A DNA stretch of 64,000 bases from an uncultured Pseudoflavonifractor sp. (GTDB lineage Bacteria; Bacillota; Clostridia; Oscillospirales; Oscillospiraceae): NCBI RefSeq assembly GCF_944387805.1, contig NZ_CALXGI010000004.1:20793-84792 (forward strand). Direction: 5' to 3'. The notes under the pieces are model-generated. The model was given only the letters and a program-made list of their open reading frames with translations. It was not told where the DNA came from and ran no database searches. Shown piece by piece: positions 8,165 through 54,984 of this stretch (its first letter is position 1; each line of letters starts with the position of its first letter). A program made the translations under genes and the position numbers.

Positions 8165-8391
8165 AAAAGCCGCCCGGACGACGGGCGTCCGGGCGGCTGC
8201 AGGCTGTCGATAAACCCTTCGGCCAAAGGTTTCGGAGGGAAAGATAGTGTGAAAGAAAACCGTCAGGGTTGTCTTTCGCGTGCAATCAAACCACTTTTTC
8301 AAACTTTCAAAAGTTTGAAAAAGTGCAGCAGCCTGTCGAAAAGACGCTTCGACAGGCTGAAAGCCGCCCGGACAGAACTGTCCAGGCGGCT
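8165..8391. repeat. Hairpin-rich MITE-like insert between two copies of a terminator hairpin
   Basis: AGCCGCCCGGAC..GTCC(G/A)GGCGGCT at 8168-8198 and 8362-8391; internal 15-bp IR 8292-8306/8311-8325 and 12-bp IR 8329-8340/8348-8359. Confidence 0.55.
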
Positions 8392-51155: not shown

Positions 51156-52445
51156 ATGACCATGAGTGACTACCGTATGAGCACCAACTGCATCCACGCC
51201 GGCTACCGCCCCGGAAACGGGGAGCCCCGGAATATTCCCATTGTCCAGTCCACCACCTTCCGGTACGCTACCGGCGAGCAGATGGGCGCCCTCTTTGACC
51301 TGGAGGCCAGCGGCTATTTCTACACCCGCCTCCAGAACCCCACCAATGACCACGTGGCGGCCAAAATCTGCGCCCTGGAGGGCGGCACGGCGGCCATGCT
51401 CACCTCCTCCGGCCAGGCGGCCAACTTCTATGCCGTGTTCAACATCGCCTCCTGCGGCGACCATGTGGTGGCCTCCTCCGCCATCTACGGCGGCACCTTC
51501 AACCTCTTCGCCGTCACCATGAAGCGGATGGGCATTGAGTTCACCTTTGTGGACCCGGACTGCTCTGAGGCTGAGCTGGAGGCCGCTTTCCGGCCCAACA
51601 CCAAGGCCGTGTTCGGCGAGACCATCGCCAACCCCGCCCTCACTGTGCTGGACATCGAGAAGTTCGCCAAGGCGGCCCACGCCCACGGCGTGCCCCTCAT
51701 CGTGGACAACACCTTCCCCACCCCTGTGAACTGCCGTCCCTTCGAGTGGGGCGCTGATATCGTCACCCACTCCACCACCAAGTACATGGACGGCCACGCC
51801 AACGCGGTGGGCGGCGCCATTGTGGACTCCGGCAAGTTCGACTGGAATGCCCACTCCGACAAGTTCCCCGGCCTGACCACCCCCGACGAGAGCTACCACG
51901 GCGTGACCTACACCGAGCGCTTCGGCCTGGCCGGCGCCTACATCACCAAGGCCACCGTCCAGCTCATGCGGGACCTGGGCTCCATCCCCTCTCCCCAGAA
52001 CTGCTACTACCTGAACATCGGCCTTGAGACCCTGCCTCTGCGGATGAAGCAGCACTGCTCCAACGCTCTGGCCGTGGCCCAGTATCTCCAGGGCCATGAG
52101 AAGGTGGCCTGGGTCAAGTACCCCGGTCTGGAGGGGGACCAGTACCACGCCATGGCCGCCAAGTACATGCCCAATGGCACCTGCGGCGTGGTGTCCTTCG
52201 GCGTGAAGGGCGGCCGTGCGGCAGCCTCCAAGTTCATGGCCGGGCTGGAACTGGCCTCCATTGCCACCCATGTGGCCGACGCCAAGACCTGCGTGCTCCA
52301 CCCCGCCTCCACCACCCACCGGCAGATGAACGATGCCGAGCTGGCCGCCGCCGGTGTGTCTCCCGACCTGGTGCGCCTGTCCGTGGGTATTGAGGACCCC
52401 GCCGACATCCTGGCCGACGTGAAGAAGGCCCTGGCCGGCGTGTAA
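51156..52445 (+). CDS. metY: O-acetylhomoserine aminocarboxypropyltransferase (sulfhydrylase)
   Basis: YTRLQNPT, IVDNT, HSTTKYMDGH (PLP lysine), HPASTTH, VRLSVGIE. Confidence 0.9.
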   Translation: MTMSDYRMSTNCIHAGYRPGNGEPRNIPIVQSTTFRYATGEQMGALFDLEASGYFYTRLQNPTNDHVAAKICALEGGTAAMLTSSGQAANFYAVFNIASCGDHVVASSAIYGGTFNLFAVTMKRMGIEFTFVDPDCSEAELEAAFRPNTKAVFGETIANPALTVLDIEKFAKAAHAHGVPLIVDNTFPTPVNCRPFEWGADIVTHSTTKYMDGHANAVGGAIVDSGKFDWNAHSDKFPGLTTPDESYHGVTYTERFGLAGAYITKATVQLMRDLGSIPSPQNCYYLNIGLETLPLRMKQHCSNALAVAQYLQGHEKVAWVKYPGLEGDQYHAMAAKYMPNGTCGVVSFGVKGGRAAASKFMAGLELASIATHVADAKTCVLHPASTTHRQMNDAELAAAGVSPDLVRLSVGIEDPADILADVKKALAGV

Positions 52446-52544
52446 GACAAAGTCTGCAAAGAGAAGCCGCCCCAGCGGAACCGGATTGTCCGGACCCGCT
52501 GGGGCGGTTCTATTGCGGCCTGAAAAAAGGGCATTGCTGTTTTA

Positions 52545-52782
52545 TCACTTGGCGCAGTCGTTAATGAGGCAGCCGGCCGGCACGATATCCCGTACGCCCC
52601 GCAGGACAGGTCCTGCGGGGCGCCCCGGGCGAGATTGGATTTGCACGGGCGGAGTAAATCCGCCCGGCATCAAGGTTTTTCCGCAGGAAAAACGCTTGGG
52701 ACGCCGCAGGGGCGGCGGCGAGGAGCGGGATCTCTTACTTGGCGTAGTAGTTGATGAGACAGCCGGCCAGCACGATATCCCG
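52545..52782. repeat. 48-bp degenerate direct repeat of the hydratase 3' end flanking a ~140-bp hairpin-rich spacer
   Basis: 52545-52592 vs 52735-52782: 42/48 identical by manual alignment. Confidence 0.8.
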
Positions 52783-54984
52783 CTCCTCGCGGGTCATGCC
52801 GGGCAGGCGGAGGGTGACGGTGCGCTCCTGGCCGTTCTGGATGAGGGTGGCTTCCACGGTCTCGTCCATGGACTCCAGCGCCTTCCGGATGCCGGGCAGC
52901 CACAGCTGGTCCCCGGGCTGGATGTTCCAGTCCTTCACGCCGTCGGCCACAAAGGGCAGCATACCCCAGTTGACCACATTGGAGCGGTAGCGCTTGGTGG
53001 CGTACTCAGCGGCCAGGTTGGCGCAGCCGCCCAGCACACGCTGGCAGGAGGCGGCCTGCTCACGGGCGGAGCCGTCGCCGGGCTTGAGGGCCATGACAAA
53101 GGTGCCCAGGCCGGTGGTGCGGCCGTCCCGACCGCCCAGGGCCTCCACAACGGCGGGGTTCTCCGGGTCCTTGCGCCGCAGCAGCTCTACCTCCTGGACC
53201 GCCTTGGCGCGGGGAACGTACTGGGGGTCCTTGCGGCTCAGAGCGAACTGGGAGAGCTTGATGGGGTTGGAGCGGTAGGAGGAGGTCTCGCCGGAGGGGA
53301 TGAGCTCGTCGGTGGTGGTCACCGGATCGTAGATGGCGGCAGCGGCGGTGAGGAGCAGATTCTCCGGCATGGGGATCTGCTCGGGCCAGTCGGCGATGTT
53401 GGGGCCAAAGACCAGCTCGGTCTCGGGGTGGGGGTGGCCCACGCCGAAGTACACCCGGGCCTTATAGGCCGAGTCGTCGTAGTGATAGGGCTCGTTGGCG
53501 GCGTCGGCAGGGACGTCGGGCAGCTCGGTGGCGGCGGTGAGCACGCCGCCGTTGAGGGCGGTGGCCGCGATGGAGCGGGCGTCCATCAGGGCCACATAGG
53601 CCACCTGGCCGTCTGCGGGCTTGGAGCCCTCCCGGTTGGGGAAGTTGCGGGTAGAGTGGCGGATGGAGAAGGCGCCATTGGCGGGCACGTCGCCCGCGCC
53701 GAAGCAGGGGCCGCAGAAGCAGGAGCGGATGGACGCACCGGCGGCCATCAGGTCGGCAATGTAACCCTGCTTGGTCAGCTCCAGGTTGATGGGCATGGAG
53801 CCGGGGTAGCAGGAGAGCCAGAAGGCATCGGAGCCGATGGTGTGACCCTTGAGGATCTGGGCGGCCCGGACCAGGTTCTGATAGGTGCCGCCGGAGCAGC
53901 CGGCGATGACGCCCTGGTCCACGTGGAACTGGCCGTTCTGAATCTTCTTGGTAAGGGAGGGAGCGCCGTTCTTCAGCTCCAGTTGGCGCACCGCGTCCTC
54001 CTCAACCTGGTGGAGCAGGTCGGCCATGTTGGACTTGAACTCCCGGATGGTGAAGGCGTTGGAGGGGTGGAAGGGCAGGGCGATCATGGGCTCCACGGCA
54101 GACAGATCCACTTCGATGAGGCCGTCGTACCAGGCGCCGTCGGCGGGGGCCTGGGCCTGGTAGGAGTCGCCCCGGCCCAGCACGGCCAGGTGCTCCTTCA
54201 CGGTGTCGTCGGTGCTCCACACGGAGGACAGGCAGGCGGTCTCGGTGGTCATCACGTCGATGCCGGAGCGGTAGTCCATGGACAGATTCTTCACGCCGGG
54301 GCCGAAGAACTCCATCACCGCGTTCTTCACCGCGCCAATCTTGAAGGTGGCGCCGATAAGGGCCAGGGCCACGTCCTGAGGACCCACGCCGGGGCGGGGC
54401 GCGCCGGTGAGGTGGATGGCGATGACCTTGGGGTAGGCGATGTCGTAGGTCTTGCACAGCAGCTGGCGGGCCAGCTCAGGGCCGCCCTCACCGATGGCCA
54501 TGCAGCCGTAGGCGCCGTAGCGGGTGTGGGAGTCGGAGCCCAGAATCATCCGGCCGGGGGCGGCGTACCGCTCCCGCATGTAGGAGTGGATGACGGCCTG
54601 GTGGGCGGGGACGAACTCGCCGCCGTACTTCTTGGCGGCGGAGAGACCAAACACGTGGTCATCCTCGTTGATGGTGCCGCCCACGGCGCACAGGGAGTTG
54701 TGGCAGTTGGTGAGCACATAGGGCAGGGGGAACTCTTTCATGCCCGAGGCACGGGCGGTCTGGATGATGCCCACGTAGGTAATATCATGGGAGGCCATGG
54801 CGTCGAATTTCAGCTTCAGCTCAGCCATGTTGCCGGCGGTGTTGTGGGCCTTGAGGATGCTGTAAGCCATGGTGCCGGACTTGGCCAGCTGGGGCGCAGG
54901 CAGACCTGCGGCCGCACCCTCGGCCTCAGAGAGGAAGCCGCCGTCCCGATAGTAGACGCCGGAGAGAGTCATTTTGATGCTCAT
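52735..54984 (-). CDS. Aconitase-family hydratase (YbhJ-like)
   Basis: [64 protein letters not shown]. Confidence 0.9.

Follow-up and report, generated by a model that had tools for sequence, protein, structure and literature searches.

An aconitase-family gene in the analysed stretch of 64,000 nucleotides (the window) ends in a direct repeat whose two copies enclose one member of a family of dispersed elements, here called E. The family is ~135 nt long, non-coding and folded into four hairpins, and it has no gene of its own. Its copies adjoin gene ends with a fixed polarity, accompanied by a duplicated gene terminus and a short inverted copy of the target. Based on the filler and microhomology at the junctions and on the fold-back copies, we infer that E was inserted and is locally renewed by template switching, without a site-specific recombinase or a classical transposase, and this is the reading that we favour on balance.

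The aconitase-family locus and its alleles

The gene (52735-54984, minus strand) encodes an intact aconitase-family protein of 749 aa (Pfam PF00330, E-value = 2e-90). Its last 16 codons, stop included (52735-52782), are present again at 52545-52592 with 6/48 differences, confirming the duplicated 3' end reported in the initial annotation. The direct repeat (52547-52592 versus 52737-52782) covers 46 nt at 89% identity with a spacing of 190. On the coding strand, the differences (gene copy/distal copy) are T/C, T/C, C/T, T/G, A/G and A/G, and the stop codon is TAA in the gene versus TGA in the distal copy, which is translated as RDIVPAGCLINDCAK followed by the stop. Three of the six changes are non-synonymous, so the distal copy is decaying. 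The 142-bp spacer between the repeat copies contains four hairpins and represents one copy of E. Both of its strands fold far better than shuffled sequences (z = -7.2 and -6.7; 0/200 shuffles equal), in line with its earlier description as nearly all hairpins. In ascending coordinates, the locus consists of the following features.

52467-52507, no strand: native intergenic terminator hairpin beyond X' (inverted repeat, 19-nt arms, 89% complementary)
52545-52592, minus strand: X', orphan repeat copy ending in TGA, decaying, adjoining native downstream sequence
52593-52595, no strand: filler TAC, 3 nt, between X' and E
52596-52627, minus strand: hp1, variable long hairpin (13-bp perfect arms 52595-52607 / 52610-52622)
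52628-52645, minus strand: linker, degenerate in the window (family consensus TTTTATCTGC, + strand, from the seed alignment)
52646-52666, minus strand: hp2, conserved, CGGGCGGA-GTAAA-TCCGCCCG
52671-52698, minus strand: hp3, conserved 12-bp hairpin with one bulged base, CAAGGTTTTTCC / GGAAAAAC(G)CTTG
52702-52717, minus strand: hp4, small G+C hairpin in the variable tail, CGCCGC / GCGGCG
52718-52731, no strand: 14-nt inverted copy of the target across the inner repeat junction, exact complement of 52777-52790
52732-52734, no strand: spacer of 3 nt that separates the stop codon from the inverted copy
52735-52782, minus strand: X, functional repeat copy, the last 16 codons of the aconitase-family gene including TAA
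52777-52790, minus strand: coding-sequence site mirrored by the inverted copy, with the inner repeat junction at 52782/52783

The hairpin at 52467-52507 coincides with a terminator-like site on the minus strand and lies between the aconitase-family gene and a convergent metY-like gene (51156-52445, + strand). The inverted copy at 52718-52731 is perfect over its 14 nt, as had been noted from the letters; in non-cognate controls, in which the tail of each element was tested against the junctions of other elements, the best match was at most 8 nt.

Across the compared genomes, the locus is occupied by E in G000, G010, G007 and G001, and empty in G009, G008, G006, G002, G004 and G005, where the stop codon is directly followed by the native terminator. 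Because the sequence beyond X' in G007 is homologous to the terminator directly after the stop codon in the empty G009, X' lies in the native context. No spacer separates the inverted copy from the stop codon in G010 and G007. In addition, an identical protein and an identical locus were found in two metagenome contigs of the same species as the window. At a second locus (C13:36071), E is present in G000 and G006, and a single copy of the repeat is present in G010, G007, G008 and G009. The occupancy patterns of the two loci are incongruent and therefore indicate repeated gains and/or losses.

The initial annotation had proposed a minimal element or excision scar using the gene as an att site, and had set against it a locus without any empty allele and a unique spacer. 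Empty alleles exist, and the spacer recurs in its own genome. The insertion with duplication of the 3' end thus stands, whereas a private scar and a common att site do not. The larger islands that it suggested looking for were not encountered: the occupied alleles in G010, G007 and G001 are as small as that in the window, and no island or integrase was present at the occupied alleles examined.

Distribution, polarity and folding of E

Copies of E were found with an nhmmer profile. The window's own genome gave 28 BLAST matches and 49 profile matches, amounting to about 40 copies, and dozens of copies per genome occur in Flavonifractor-like gut bacteria. The family is confined to Pseudoflavonifractor, Flavonifractor, Lawsonibacter, Intestinimonas and a few related genera (Oscillospiraceae). 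In total, 153 copies were collected from the own genome and from 105 stretches of other genomes (86/105 via a GTDB pattern scan); many of the compared genomes are drafts or MAGs, in which array lengths may be mis-assembled. A phage or plasmid origin was rejected: IMG/VR viral contigs and phage records contained no match to E, and the single plasmid match (36 nt, partial, Xanthobacter) was at chance level. A known RNA family was likewise rejected, as no Rfam 15 covariance model matched 52000-53200 at E-value <= 1. A full-text search of the published literature returned no description of an E-like element.

On the + strand of the window, the order of the units is native flank, X', 0-4 nt of filler or CC microhomology, hp1, T-rich linker, hp2, hp3, sometimes hp4, an inverted copy of ~14 nt, a spacer of 0-38 nt, X and the gene body. 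A direct repeat of 26-128 bp of the adjoining gene terminus accompanies 102/107 gene-proximal copies; the flank repeat score is at least 45 in these 102 units and at most 31 in the controls, except for three orthologous pairs. The repeat differs at every locus, and no att site is common to the loci. At the left junctions, filler of 1-6 nt (mostly 1-3) occurs in 45/96 and C-run microhomology of 1-3 nt in 28/96. The variable repeat length and the filler or microhomology both argue against the site-specific recombination supposed initially. Alignment of the copies revealed no terminal inverted repeats, one end being the C-run and hp1 and the other a variable tail. Tandem units are identical to each other, and a near-identical E is never shared by two different genes, which favours local renewal.

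The unit period is 216 +/- 24 bp and is the only reliable length measure. A length ruler was rejected, since the correlation between insert and repeat length (r = -0.62) is probably an artefact: misplacement of the outer edge moves the two lengths in opposite directions. In-frame read-through into the orphan copy was also rejected, because the period modulo 3 (34/28/21) has no frame preference and the window's period of 190 shifts the frame by +1.

The tail side of E faces the gene in about 90% of units, and of the 90-nt stretches that adjoin its tail, 91% show coding periodicity, versus 13% of the 90 nt beyond X'. Gene-end classes were called by codon-position G+C, as open-frame calls are wrong in this high-G+C genome. 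Both gene ends are used: 83/95 unique units (~85% of copies) are located at 3' ends, and at the 5'-end loci (7/50) E is antisense to the gene and has the same strand bias as at 3' loci. The outer repeat edge falls within -12 to +6 nt of the stop codon at 29/34 loci. Three loci have a repeat whose end lies 4-12 nt past the intrinsic terminator of the gene itself, the place where the transcript ends.

All copies of hp1 share one architecture, CCCC-stem-loop-stem-GGGG and then (A/G)CCCC, and each locus has its own stem sequence. Derivation of hp1 from the target was rejected, as a resemblance was found in the window only and not at other loci. Beside the CCCC/GGGG clamp, 31 copies have an A·C pair on the + strand, 27 have A-T and 11 have G-C; the A·C pair corresponds to G·U on the minus strand. 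Compensatory changes occur in hp2 (GC/CG and GC/AU/GU swaps, 118 unique copies) and in hp3 (CG 58 / GC 39 at one pair, AU 104 / GC 11 at another), and the presence and length of hp4 differ between copies. The minus strand, which is the mRNA-sense strand at 3' ends, folds better in 95/118 units (p = 2e-13) and contains 150 G·U pairs versus 101 on the other strand. The hairpins are selected on one strand. In the complete genome G004, ten copies lie on mixed strands without a two-arm pattern, a weak observation because the replication origin is unmapped; lagging-strand targeting was rejected on the lack of a strand pattern among these ten copies.

The inverted target copy and routes of insertion

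An inverted copy of 9-19 nt spans the inner repeat junction. Its length is 9 nt or more in 78% of the 102 copies versus 4% of non-cognate comparisons, with a mean length of 11.2 nt versus 5.8 nt, and was seen at 39/50 independent loci. The inverted copy, which was initially noted as letting the aconitase mRNA fold over its own stop codon, is not peculiar to this mRNA but a hallmark of the whole family. The copy usually covers -9 to +5 around the junction (~9 nt inside the repeat and ~5 nt beyond) and starts ~1-7, 16-22 or 32-40 nt after hp3. It also follows its target: gene substitutions in orthologues are mirrored (for example, cgggaCatc / gatGtcccg in G001), and where the same E core is found at the same gene in different genera, the inner junctions differ and the tails match each junction. 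At two loci, the native terminator tail already contains 7-9 nt complementary to the later junction.

An unproven fold-back route, every step of which we infer from the junctions, could produce this anatomy. A DNA 3' end near a gene boundary would fold back on a short complementary coding stretch and be extended by a few nucleotides, giving the inverted copy. Synthesis would then copy an E template, re-enter the target via C/G microhomology and re-copy the gene terminus, giving the direct repeat. The two repeat copies would then recombine, with precise loss or tandem arrays as the outcome. In the window, the last 48 nt of the aconitase-family gene would have been duplicated in this way, with the distal copy left to decay beside the native terminator. 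Quasi-palindrome or fold-back template switching at replication forks, as in bacterial template-switch mutagenesis and in ODIRA in yeast (PMC10766183), resembles this route in its short inverted repeats that prime copying, its junctional microhomology and the resulting duplications. Bacterial template-switch mutagenesis and ODIRA are sporadic mutations, whereas E is a heritable, dispersed and structured element with one anatomy at ~50 loci.

The template-switch model needs three ordered template switches. It leaves without explanation both the near-constant 9+5 geometry of the inverted copy and the clustering of the outer repeat edge at the stop codon. The lack of near-identical copies of E at two different genes gives no sign of recent movement between loci, which also counts against it. 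In a more specific form that we put forward tentatively, E may be an enzyme-less, self-renewing, strand-specific folded DNA or RNA that captures polymerases at transcription-unit boundaries by fold-back and template switching, each event rewriting the gene-end copy together with the 14-nt imprint. If this is true, stop codons and terminator ends are places where 3' ends of DNA or RNA form in vivo, and the repeat and the inverted imprint document them.

Three families of possible partner enzymes were surveyed, namely reverse transcriptase (RT), Y1 transposase and IS110 recombinase; none of them tracks E, although a dedicated enzyme of another family may act on it. By template jumping and snap-back, an RT might copy E RNA and, with it, the 3'-terminal part of an mRNA, terminated or ribosome-trimmed; recombination would then bring the product into the gene end. 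Such a route fits the mRNA sense of E at ~85% of loci, the mRNA-sense identity of the better-folding, G·U-bearing strand, the three repeats that end 4-12 nt past an intrinsic terminator, and the combination of filler and microhomology, which is typical of RT template jumps. We nevertheless consider it unlikely. RT is absent from the E carriers G001, G003, G004 (a complete genome), G005 and G007, nor does the copy number of E go with the number of RT genes; the window region is without an RT, and its genome holds one distant RT. Moreover, the 5'-end loci have E antisense to the gene yet the same strand bias, and the inverted copy holds bases beyond the supply of a captured-fragment cDNA alone. 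A retron ncRNA (a1-msr-msd-a2) is, like E, a unit of ~150 nt closed by a flanking inverted repeat, in which a series of small conserved hairpins precedes a single long variable one. However, E has no adjacent RT or effector gene, occurs in dozens of copies per genome and takes its closing stem from the target sequence. A diversity-generating retroelement was rejected, as the repeat differences are not confined to the adenines of either copy and 5'-end loci exist.

A rather improbable alternative is that E is a MITE mobilised by a trans-acting DDE transposase with target duplications as long and variable as those of IS1634 and IS1549, whose direct repeats of 8-514 bp are without a mechanistic explanation (PMC2266710). 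E shares with these insertion sequences the long target duplication of variable length, and with MITEs and REP/BIME repeats a short, non-coding, hairpin-rich, multi-copy nature, a position mostly behind genes and a narrow taxonomic range. A staggered cut, however, would duplicate the target symmetrically and predicts both orientations, whereas the tail of E faces the gene in ~90% of units; it predicts no inverted target copy, and the junctions of E carry filler. IS1634 and IS1549 are 1.5-2 kb long with a DDE transposase and terminal repeats, whereas E lacks terminal repeats, and neither a fixed gene polarity nor an inverted target copy, both present in E, has been reported for them. MITE and REP/BIME families are without the 26-128 bp repeat and the inverted target copy that accompany E. 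E differs from them further in having no terminal inverted repeats, no fixed short duplication and, in several carriers, no cognate transposase or RAYT.

It is equally improbable, in our view, that an enzyme acting on folded single-stranded DNA inserted E with the 14-nt inverted copy as a programmable guide that pairs with the target, comparable to the guide tetranucleotides of IS200/IS605, the EBS-IBS pairing of group II introns or the bridge RNAs of IS110. In favour of this, the inverted copy straddles precisely the position to which E is joined at its other end, keeps a constant geometry and tracks target substitutions in orthologues, and the structure is strand-specific. Such a guide, however, would have to be in place in each copy beforehand, whereas resetting of the junction renews the tail and leaves the core unchanged. 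The left junctions are imprecise, and no replication-direction bias was found among the ten G004 copies. Neither enzyme family tracks E: Y1 (RAYT, PF01797) is absent from G000, G001, G005 and G007, all of which have many copies of E, and IS110 recombinase is absent from several E-rich genomes. The EBS/IBS pairing of group II introns and the guides of IS200/IS605 elements likewise place an internal stretch complementary to the target across the insertion point, and their folded single strand is strand-specific, as in E. By contrast, E has no ribozyme domains, RT or Y1 transposase, and these elements insert without a long duplication, whereas the corresponding stretch of E appears to be re-made at each event.

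E might also have been domesticated and now act mainly as an RNA or DNA signal at the ends of genes, such as a 3'-UTR stabiliser or a convergent terminator, with the repeat and the inverted copy as historical by-products. Orthologous copies are kept across genera with compensatory hairpin evolution, a 3'-end bias exists, hp1 followed by the T-rich tract on the + strand resembles a terminator, and two further samples of the species carry the window locus unchanged. As the main account of E, this reading is very doubtful, because it leaves without explanation the matching of repeat and inverted copy to an evolving gene and the resetting of the junction; in addition, precise loss is frequent among close relatives, and the same strand bias holds at 5' loci, where that strand is outside the mRNA. 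It is compatible with the template-switch explanation and does not exclude it, and retention at orthologous loci across genera together with hairpin selection could equally mean a host function, for example as a 3'-UTR RNA.

Finally, insertion by a tyrosine or serine integrase with an attP overlapping the gene 3' end, leaving a minimal element or scar, is highly improbable: a duplicated gene end and an empty allele are as expected, and integrase islands at the 3' ends of tRNA or protein genes similarly leave a displaced 3'-end copy beyond the insert and the gene intact, but E has no integrase, cargo or att core, its ~50 independent loci have 50 different repeats of variable length (26-128 bp) without a shared core, its junctions are imprecise with filler on the left, both 5' and 3' gene ends are used, and no island or integrase was seen at the occupied alleles examined.

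Significance of the E family

Among the described bacterial mobile elements compared here, we could not match the three-part combination of a gene-end repeat, an inverted target copy and a fixed polarity, as read from the genomes. The usual explanation for small dispersed repeats in bacteria is a trans-acting transposase, but we could not derive the signature of E at ~50 independent loci from any known transposition, integration or retro-insertion chemistry.

E also affects genomes and their annotation. It breaks short-read assemblies, and many contig ends of the window's genome lie within E. It creates orphan gene fragments, which annotation pipelines may call as small genes, and it can substitute a protein's final codons. 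The family lends itself as a natural model of fold-back template switching in bacteria, and the cultured type strains F. plautii ATCC 29863 and P. capillosus ATCC 29799 are available for this. If E spreads or renews itself via host polymerases alone, it would represent a new route of genome change in Clostridia (Flavonifractor, Pseudoflavonifractor, Lawsonibacter and Intestinimonas) that are abundant in the human and animal gut.

The aconitase-family gene and its displaced 3' end

The aconitase-family gene (52735-54984, minus strand, 749 aa; PF00330, E-value = 2e-90) has a Cys/Met-metabolism PLP enzyme gene (51156-52445) as its convergent neighbour. The duplication of its 3' end, claimed in the initial annotation, was borne out by the window sequence and a repeat finder, which returned a direct repeat of 46 nt (52547-52592 versus 52737-52782, at a spacing of 190 bp and with 89% identity); the stop codons extend it to 48 nt with six differences. 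The distal copy X' (52545-52592) translates to RDIVPAGCLINDCAK*, and three of its six changes relative to the functional terminus X (52735-52782) are non-synonymous, indicating that X' is not under selection. The 142-bp spacer was indeed hairpin-rich, with four hairpins and a single-strand fold of z = -7 versus shuffles. The perfect 14-nt inverted copy of coding sequence was likewise recovered: 52718-52731 is the exact reverse complement of 52777-52790, a stretch spanning the inner repeat end (52782|52783).

The same locus was occupied in two related genomes, G010 and G007 (91-92% identity to the window over the matched stretch), with the inner junction (the gene-side end of X) as in the window and an orthologous element carrying compensatory changes in its third hairpin, hp3. 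It was also occupied in the distant G001 (74% identity over the matched stretch), where the copy has a different first hairpin (hp1), lacks the fourth (hp4) and is accompanied by a truncated second unit. This unit, comprising the tail and half of hp3, lies between X' and the native terminator (L015, 1440-1690), and shows that arrays are eroded by deletion. Empty sites, which the initial annotation had proposed to seek in relatives, were found in G009, G008 and G006 (gene 95-96% identical) as well as in G002, G004 and G005, with a canonical terminator directly after the stop codon in all six. In G009, the stop codon is followed by a terminator (ATAAAGCAAAAGCGAGAGGCCCCGCCGG...) that is homologous to the stretch beyond X' in G007 (ATAAAACAAAACAGAGATGCCCCGCCG...), indicating that X' keeps the native context. 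The window's locus was unchanged in two metagenome contigs of the same species. Another locus, C13:36071, was occupied in the window's own genome (G000) and G006, and precisely empty, with a single repeat copy, in G010, G007, G008 and G009. This pattern is incongruent with that of the aconitase locus, which points to recurrent gains and/or precise losses.

Other small inserts were also seen. Between the metY-like gene and X', G007 contains an additional AT-rich ORF of ~170 codons that the window lacks (L011, 860-1390), and G009 has a different AT-rich insert of ~0.8 kb at the equivalent place; small insertions have a hot spot in the region between these genes. At 8165-8391 of the window, a ~160-bp hairpin-packed insert lies between two near-identical terminator-like hairpins (CCGCCCGGAC...GTCCGGGCGG). 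It gave no match to the profile of the spacer family described below, and may belong to a further family of small elements with duplicated flanks in this genome.

Structure and distribution of the element E family

The initial annotation had weighed a unique spacer as the mark of a simple local duplication; the genome-wide search found instead a dispersed family, here called element E, of which the spacer is one copy. In the own assembly (2.99 Mb, 110 contigs), an initial search returned 49 matches at E-value <= 10, of which about 25 matched the spacer core significantly; BLAST returned 28 matches, and a profile built from 18 copies likewise returned 49. Many contigs of this assembly start or end within a copy or array (including C6, C20, C22, C33, C38, C53, C67 and C73). 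Assembly breaks are often caused by element E, and draft assemblies give unreliable array lengths; many of the genomes compared are drafts or MAGs. The pooled set of 153 copies combined the own genome with 105 stretches from other genomes, and because orthologous loci inflate raw counts, counts are also given per independent locus (n=50). The parts of the element are as follows.

Parts of element E in order along the window plus strand
hp1, first on the plus strand: CCCC-variable stem-loop-GGGG, then ACCCC
Linker, after hp1, plus strand: T-rich, consensus TTTTATCTGC
hp2, after the linker, plus strand: CGGGCGGA-GTGAA-TCCGCCCG
hp3, after hp2, plus strand: 12-bp stem, CAAGGTTTTGCC...GGCAAAAC(G)CTTG
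Variable tail, after hp3, plus strand: often with a small G+C hairpin, hp4

Among 118 unique copies, hp2 and hp3 showed repeated double compensatory changes (example pair counts: CG 58 / GC 39; AU 104 / GC 11; GC 102 / AU 8 / GU 6). The sequence of hp1 varies by locus, its pairing is always kept, and compensatory change was found among orthologues. The more stable fold was that of the reverse complement of the plus strand in 95 of the 118 units (Wilcoxon p = 2e-13), with 150 G·U pairs versus 101 on the plus strand. The hp1 pair beside the CCCC/GGGG clamp reads A·C in 31 copies, A-T in 27 and G-C in 11 on the plus strand, corresponding to G·U, A-U and G-C on the other. The better-folding strand is the mRNA-sense strand at 3'-end loci; since the bias was also present in 11 of 12 units at 5' gene ends, it appears to be a property of the element rather than of the host transcript.

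A subfamily with E-like hp2 and hp3 was observed behind tRNA genes and terminators outside the window (C3:77595-78021 and C61:9265-9336 of G000). It is closed by a CCCACCC/GGGTGGG stem and is without the usual gene-end repeat; at C3:77595-78021, the tRNA 3' part and terminator are repeated with a period of ~316 bp.

All ten other species of the window's genus carried copies. When one genome for each GTDB species was scanned for the exact pattern, 86 stretches contained the core. Their sources were Pseudoflavonifractor, Flavonifractor (with F. plautii ATCC 29863 among them), Lawsonibacter faecis, Intestinimonas, Candidatus Galloscillospira, Enterenecus and unnamed Clostridiales, and nothing outside these taxa. 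Thirty genomes drawn from other genera of the same family and order gave no match to the core, and no match to the element was found in IMG/VR and phage records; plasmid records gave a single, chance-level match of 36 nt. No matching family was found in Rfam, and a full-text literature search found no account of this one.

Gene ends and the inverted copy of the target

Every copy in the own genome uncut by a contig end was flanked by a direct repeat of adjoining sequence (30-115 bp, 87-100% identity; unit period 167-244 bp). In the pooled set, 102 of 107 gene-proximal units had a flank repeat score >= 45, and controls in which the left and right flanks came from different units scored <= 31, except for three orthologous pairs. 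The left copy X' adjoins hp1, and the right copy X is found past the tail, from where it runs on into the gene. Codon-phase G+C periodicity called 91% of 90-nt stretches past the inner junction coding versus 13% left of X', indicating that the tail faces the intact gene and X' faces intergenic DNA.

Judging frames from third-position G+C, 83 of 95 unique units were assigned to gene 3' ends. The other 12 were at 5' ends, with a repeat that takes in the ribosome-binding site and first codons; per independent locus, 37 were at 3' ends, seven at 5' ends and six unclear. The outer repeat edge fell -12 to +6 nt from the stop codon at 29 of 34 3'-end loci, and at three loci the repeat extends beyond it, to a point 4-12 nt past the intrinsic terminator of the gene itself. 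A repeat that does not reach as far as the native stop codon leaves the gene with a few final codons from the insert; in L056 and L107, the gene appears to end in one to three codons plus a stop from the insert. From these sequences, the element appears able to rewrite protein C-termini.

The window's 14-nt inverted copy is a hallmark of the family. The best ungapped complement between each unit's tail and the 30 nt around its inner junction averaged 11.2 nt, versus 5.8 nt for tails compared with the inner junctions of other units. It reached >= 9 nt in 78% of cognate pairs versus 4% of controls, and >= 12 nt in 49% versus 0.9%; it was present at 39 of the 50 independent loci. Typically, it spans ~9 nt within the repeat and ~5 nt beyond, in the gene body, independently of the similarity between X and X'. 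The part beyond the junction is missing from X', indicating that the inverted copy was taken from an uninterrupted target. Moreover, it tracks gene changes in orthologues (gatGtcccg / cgggaCatc in G001 versus gatAtcccg / cgggaTatc elsewhere), with further cases in L108 (GGCGTCATCCAGCT) and L077 (TGCCTGTCGCCC).

Possible origin and local renewal

The left junction is imprecise, with 1-6 filler nt (mostly 1-3) in 45 of 96 cases and 1-3 nt in common with the hp1 C-run in 28 of 96; 0-38 nt separate the repeat from the inverted copy. The variable repeats, filler or microhomology, short fold-back copy and lack of a dedicated enzyme among the three families compared led us to propose template switching during nucleic-acid synthesis. 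A 3' end would arise close to a transcription-unit boundary and fold back onto the coding region, where extension by a few nt would give the inverted copy. Synthesis would continue on an E template and re-enter the target via C/G microhomology, copying the gene terminus again as the direct repeat. Recombination between repeat copies would then yield precise loss and arrays. At the L057/L089/L045 locus and in L093, the native terminator tail already has 7-9 nt complementary to the later junction site, and this stretch is a perfect complement in the functional copy, the outcome expected if fold-back priming were followed by copying of the opposite arm. The constant 9+5 geometry of the inverted copy is not accounted for by template switching.

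The synthesis involved may be reverse transcription, with RNA as the template, or may take place in DNA replication or repair. Repeat edges at terminator ends and stop codons hint at RNA ends, but reverse transcriptase is absent from many carriers. Ten copies in the complete genome G004 showed no clear strand pattern along the chromosome. A recombinase or transposase was judged unlikely as the maker on the same junction features and on comparison with three enzyme families: reverse transcriptase (PF00078), Y1 transposase (PF01797) and IS110 recombinase (PF01548) were each missing from several E-rich genomes, and none of them was found in G001, G005 or G007. The integration scar at a gene 3' end read by the initial annotation was only partly supported: the displaced gene end is a feature shared with integrase-borne islands, but integrase, cargo and a common att core were all absent.

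Among known systems, MITEs and REP elements are alike in size, copy number and position, but element E fails their defining tests, having no terminal inverted repeats, short fixed duplication or cognate enzyme. Long variable repeats are shared with IS1634 and IS1549, whose direct repeats of 8-514 bp arise by an unknown mechanism (PMC2266710); however, these are full insertion sequences, for which target imprint and gene polarity are not reported. Group II intron EBS/IBS pairing and IS200/IS605 guides also place a complementary stretch across the insertion point, but none of their catalytic parts are present. Fold-back template switching, such as ODIRA, is documented as a sporadic mutational process (PMC10766183), but no heritable element is documented as living by it.

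Some copies form tandem arrays with two or three units, often identical within an array, in the own genome (C7, C27, C32, C38, C53, C67 and C72) and in other species; C53:4300-4898 nests three units of two different subtypes at one gene end, with four gene-terminus copies, the outermost orphan being the most decayed. No near-identical copies were found at two different genes; for units with unrelated flanks, the highest identity had a median of 82%. The few pairs > 90% identical were at the same gene in different genera, sharing hp1-hp3 and differing in inner junctions, repeat lengths (L047 and L059, 51 and 107 nt; L035 and L071, 92 and 30 nt) and tails. L040 and L062, another case at one gene, have an equal hp1 type and different inner junctions. 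These differences indicate that the core persists at a locus and that the repeat is made anew together with the inverted copy that matches it. Spread to further genes would accordingly be old or rare, with local renewal probably continuing. The window copy is one old, vertically inherited member of the family, which comprises small structured elements that make a second copy of a gene terminus and leave an inverted imprint of their target, and which is apparently undescribed so far.
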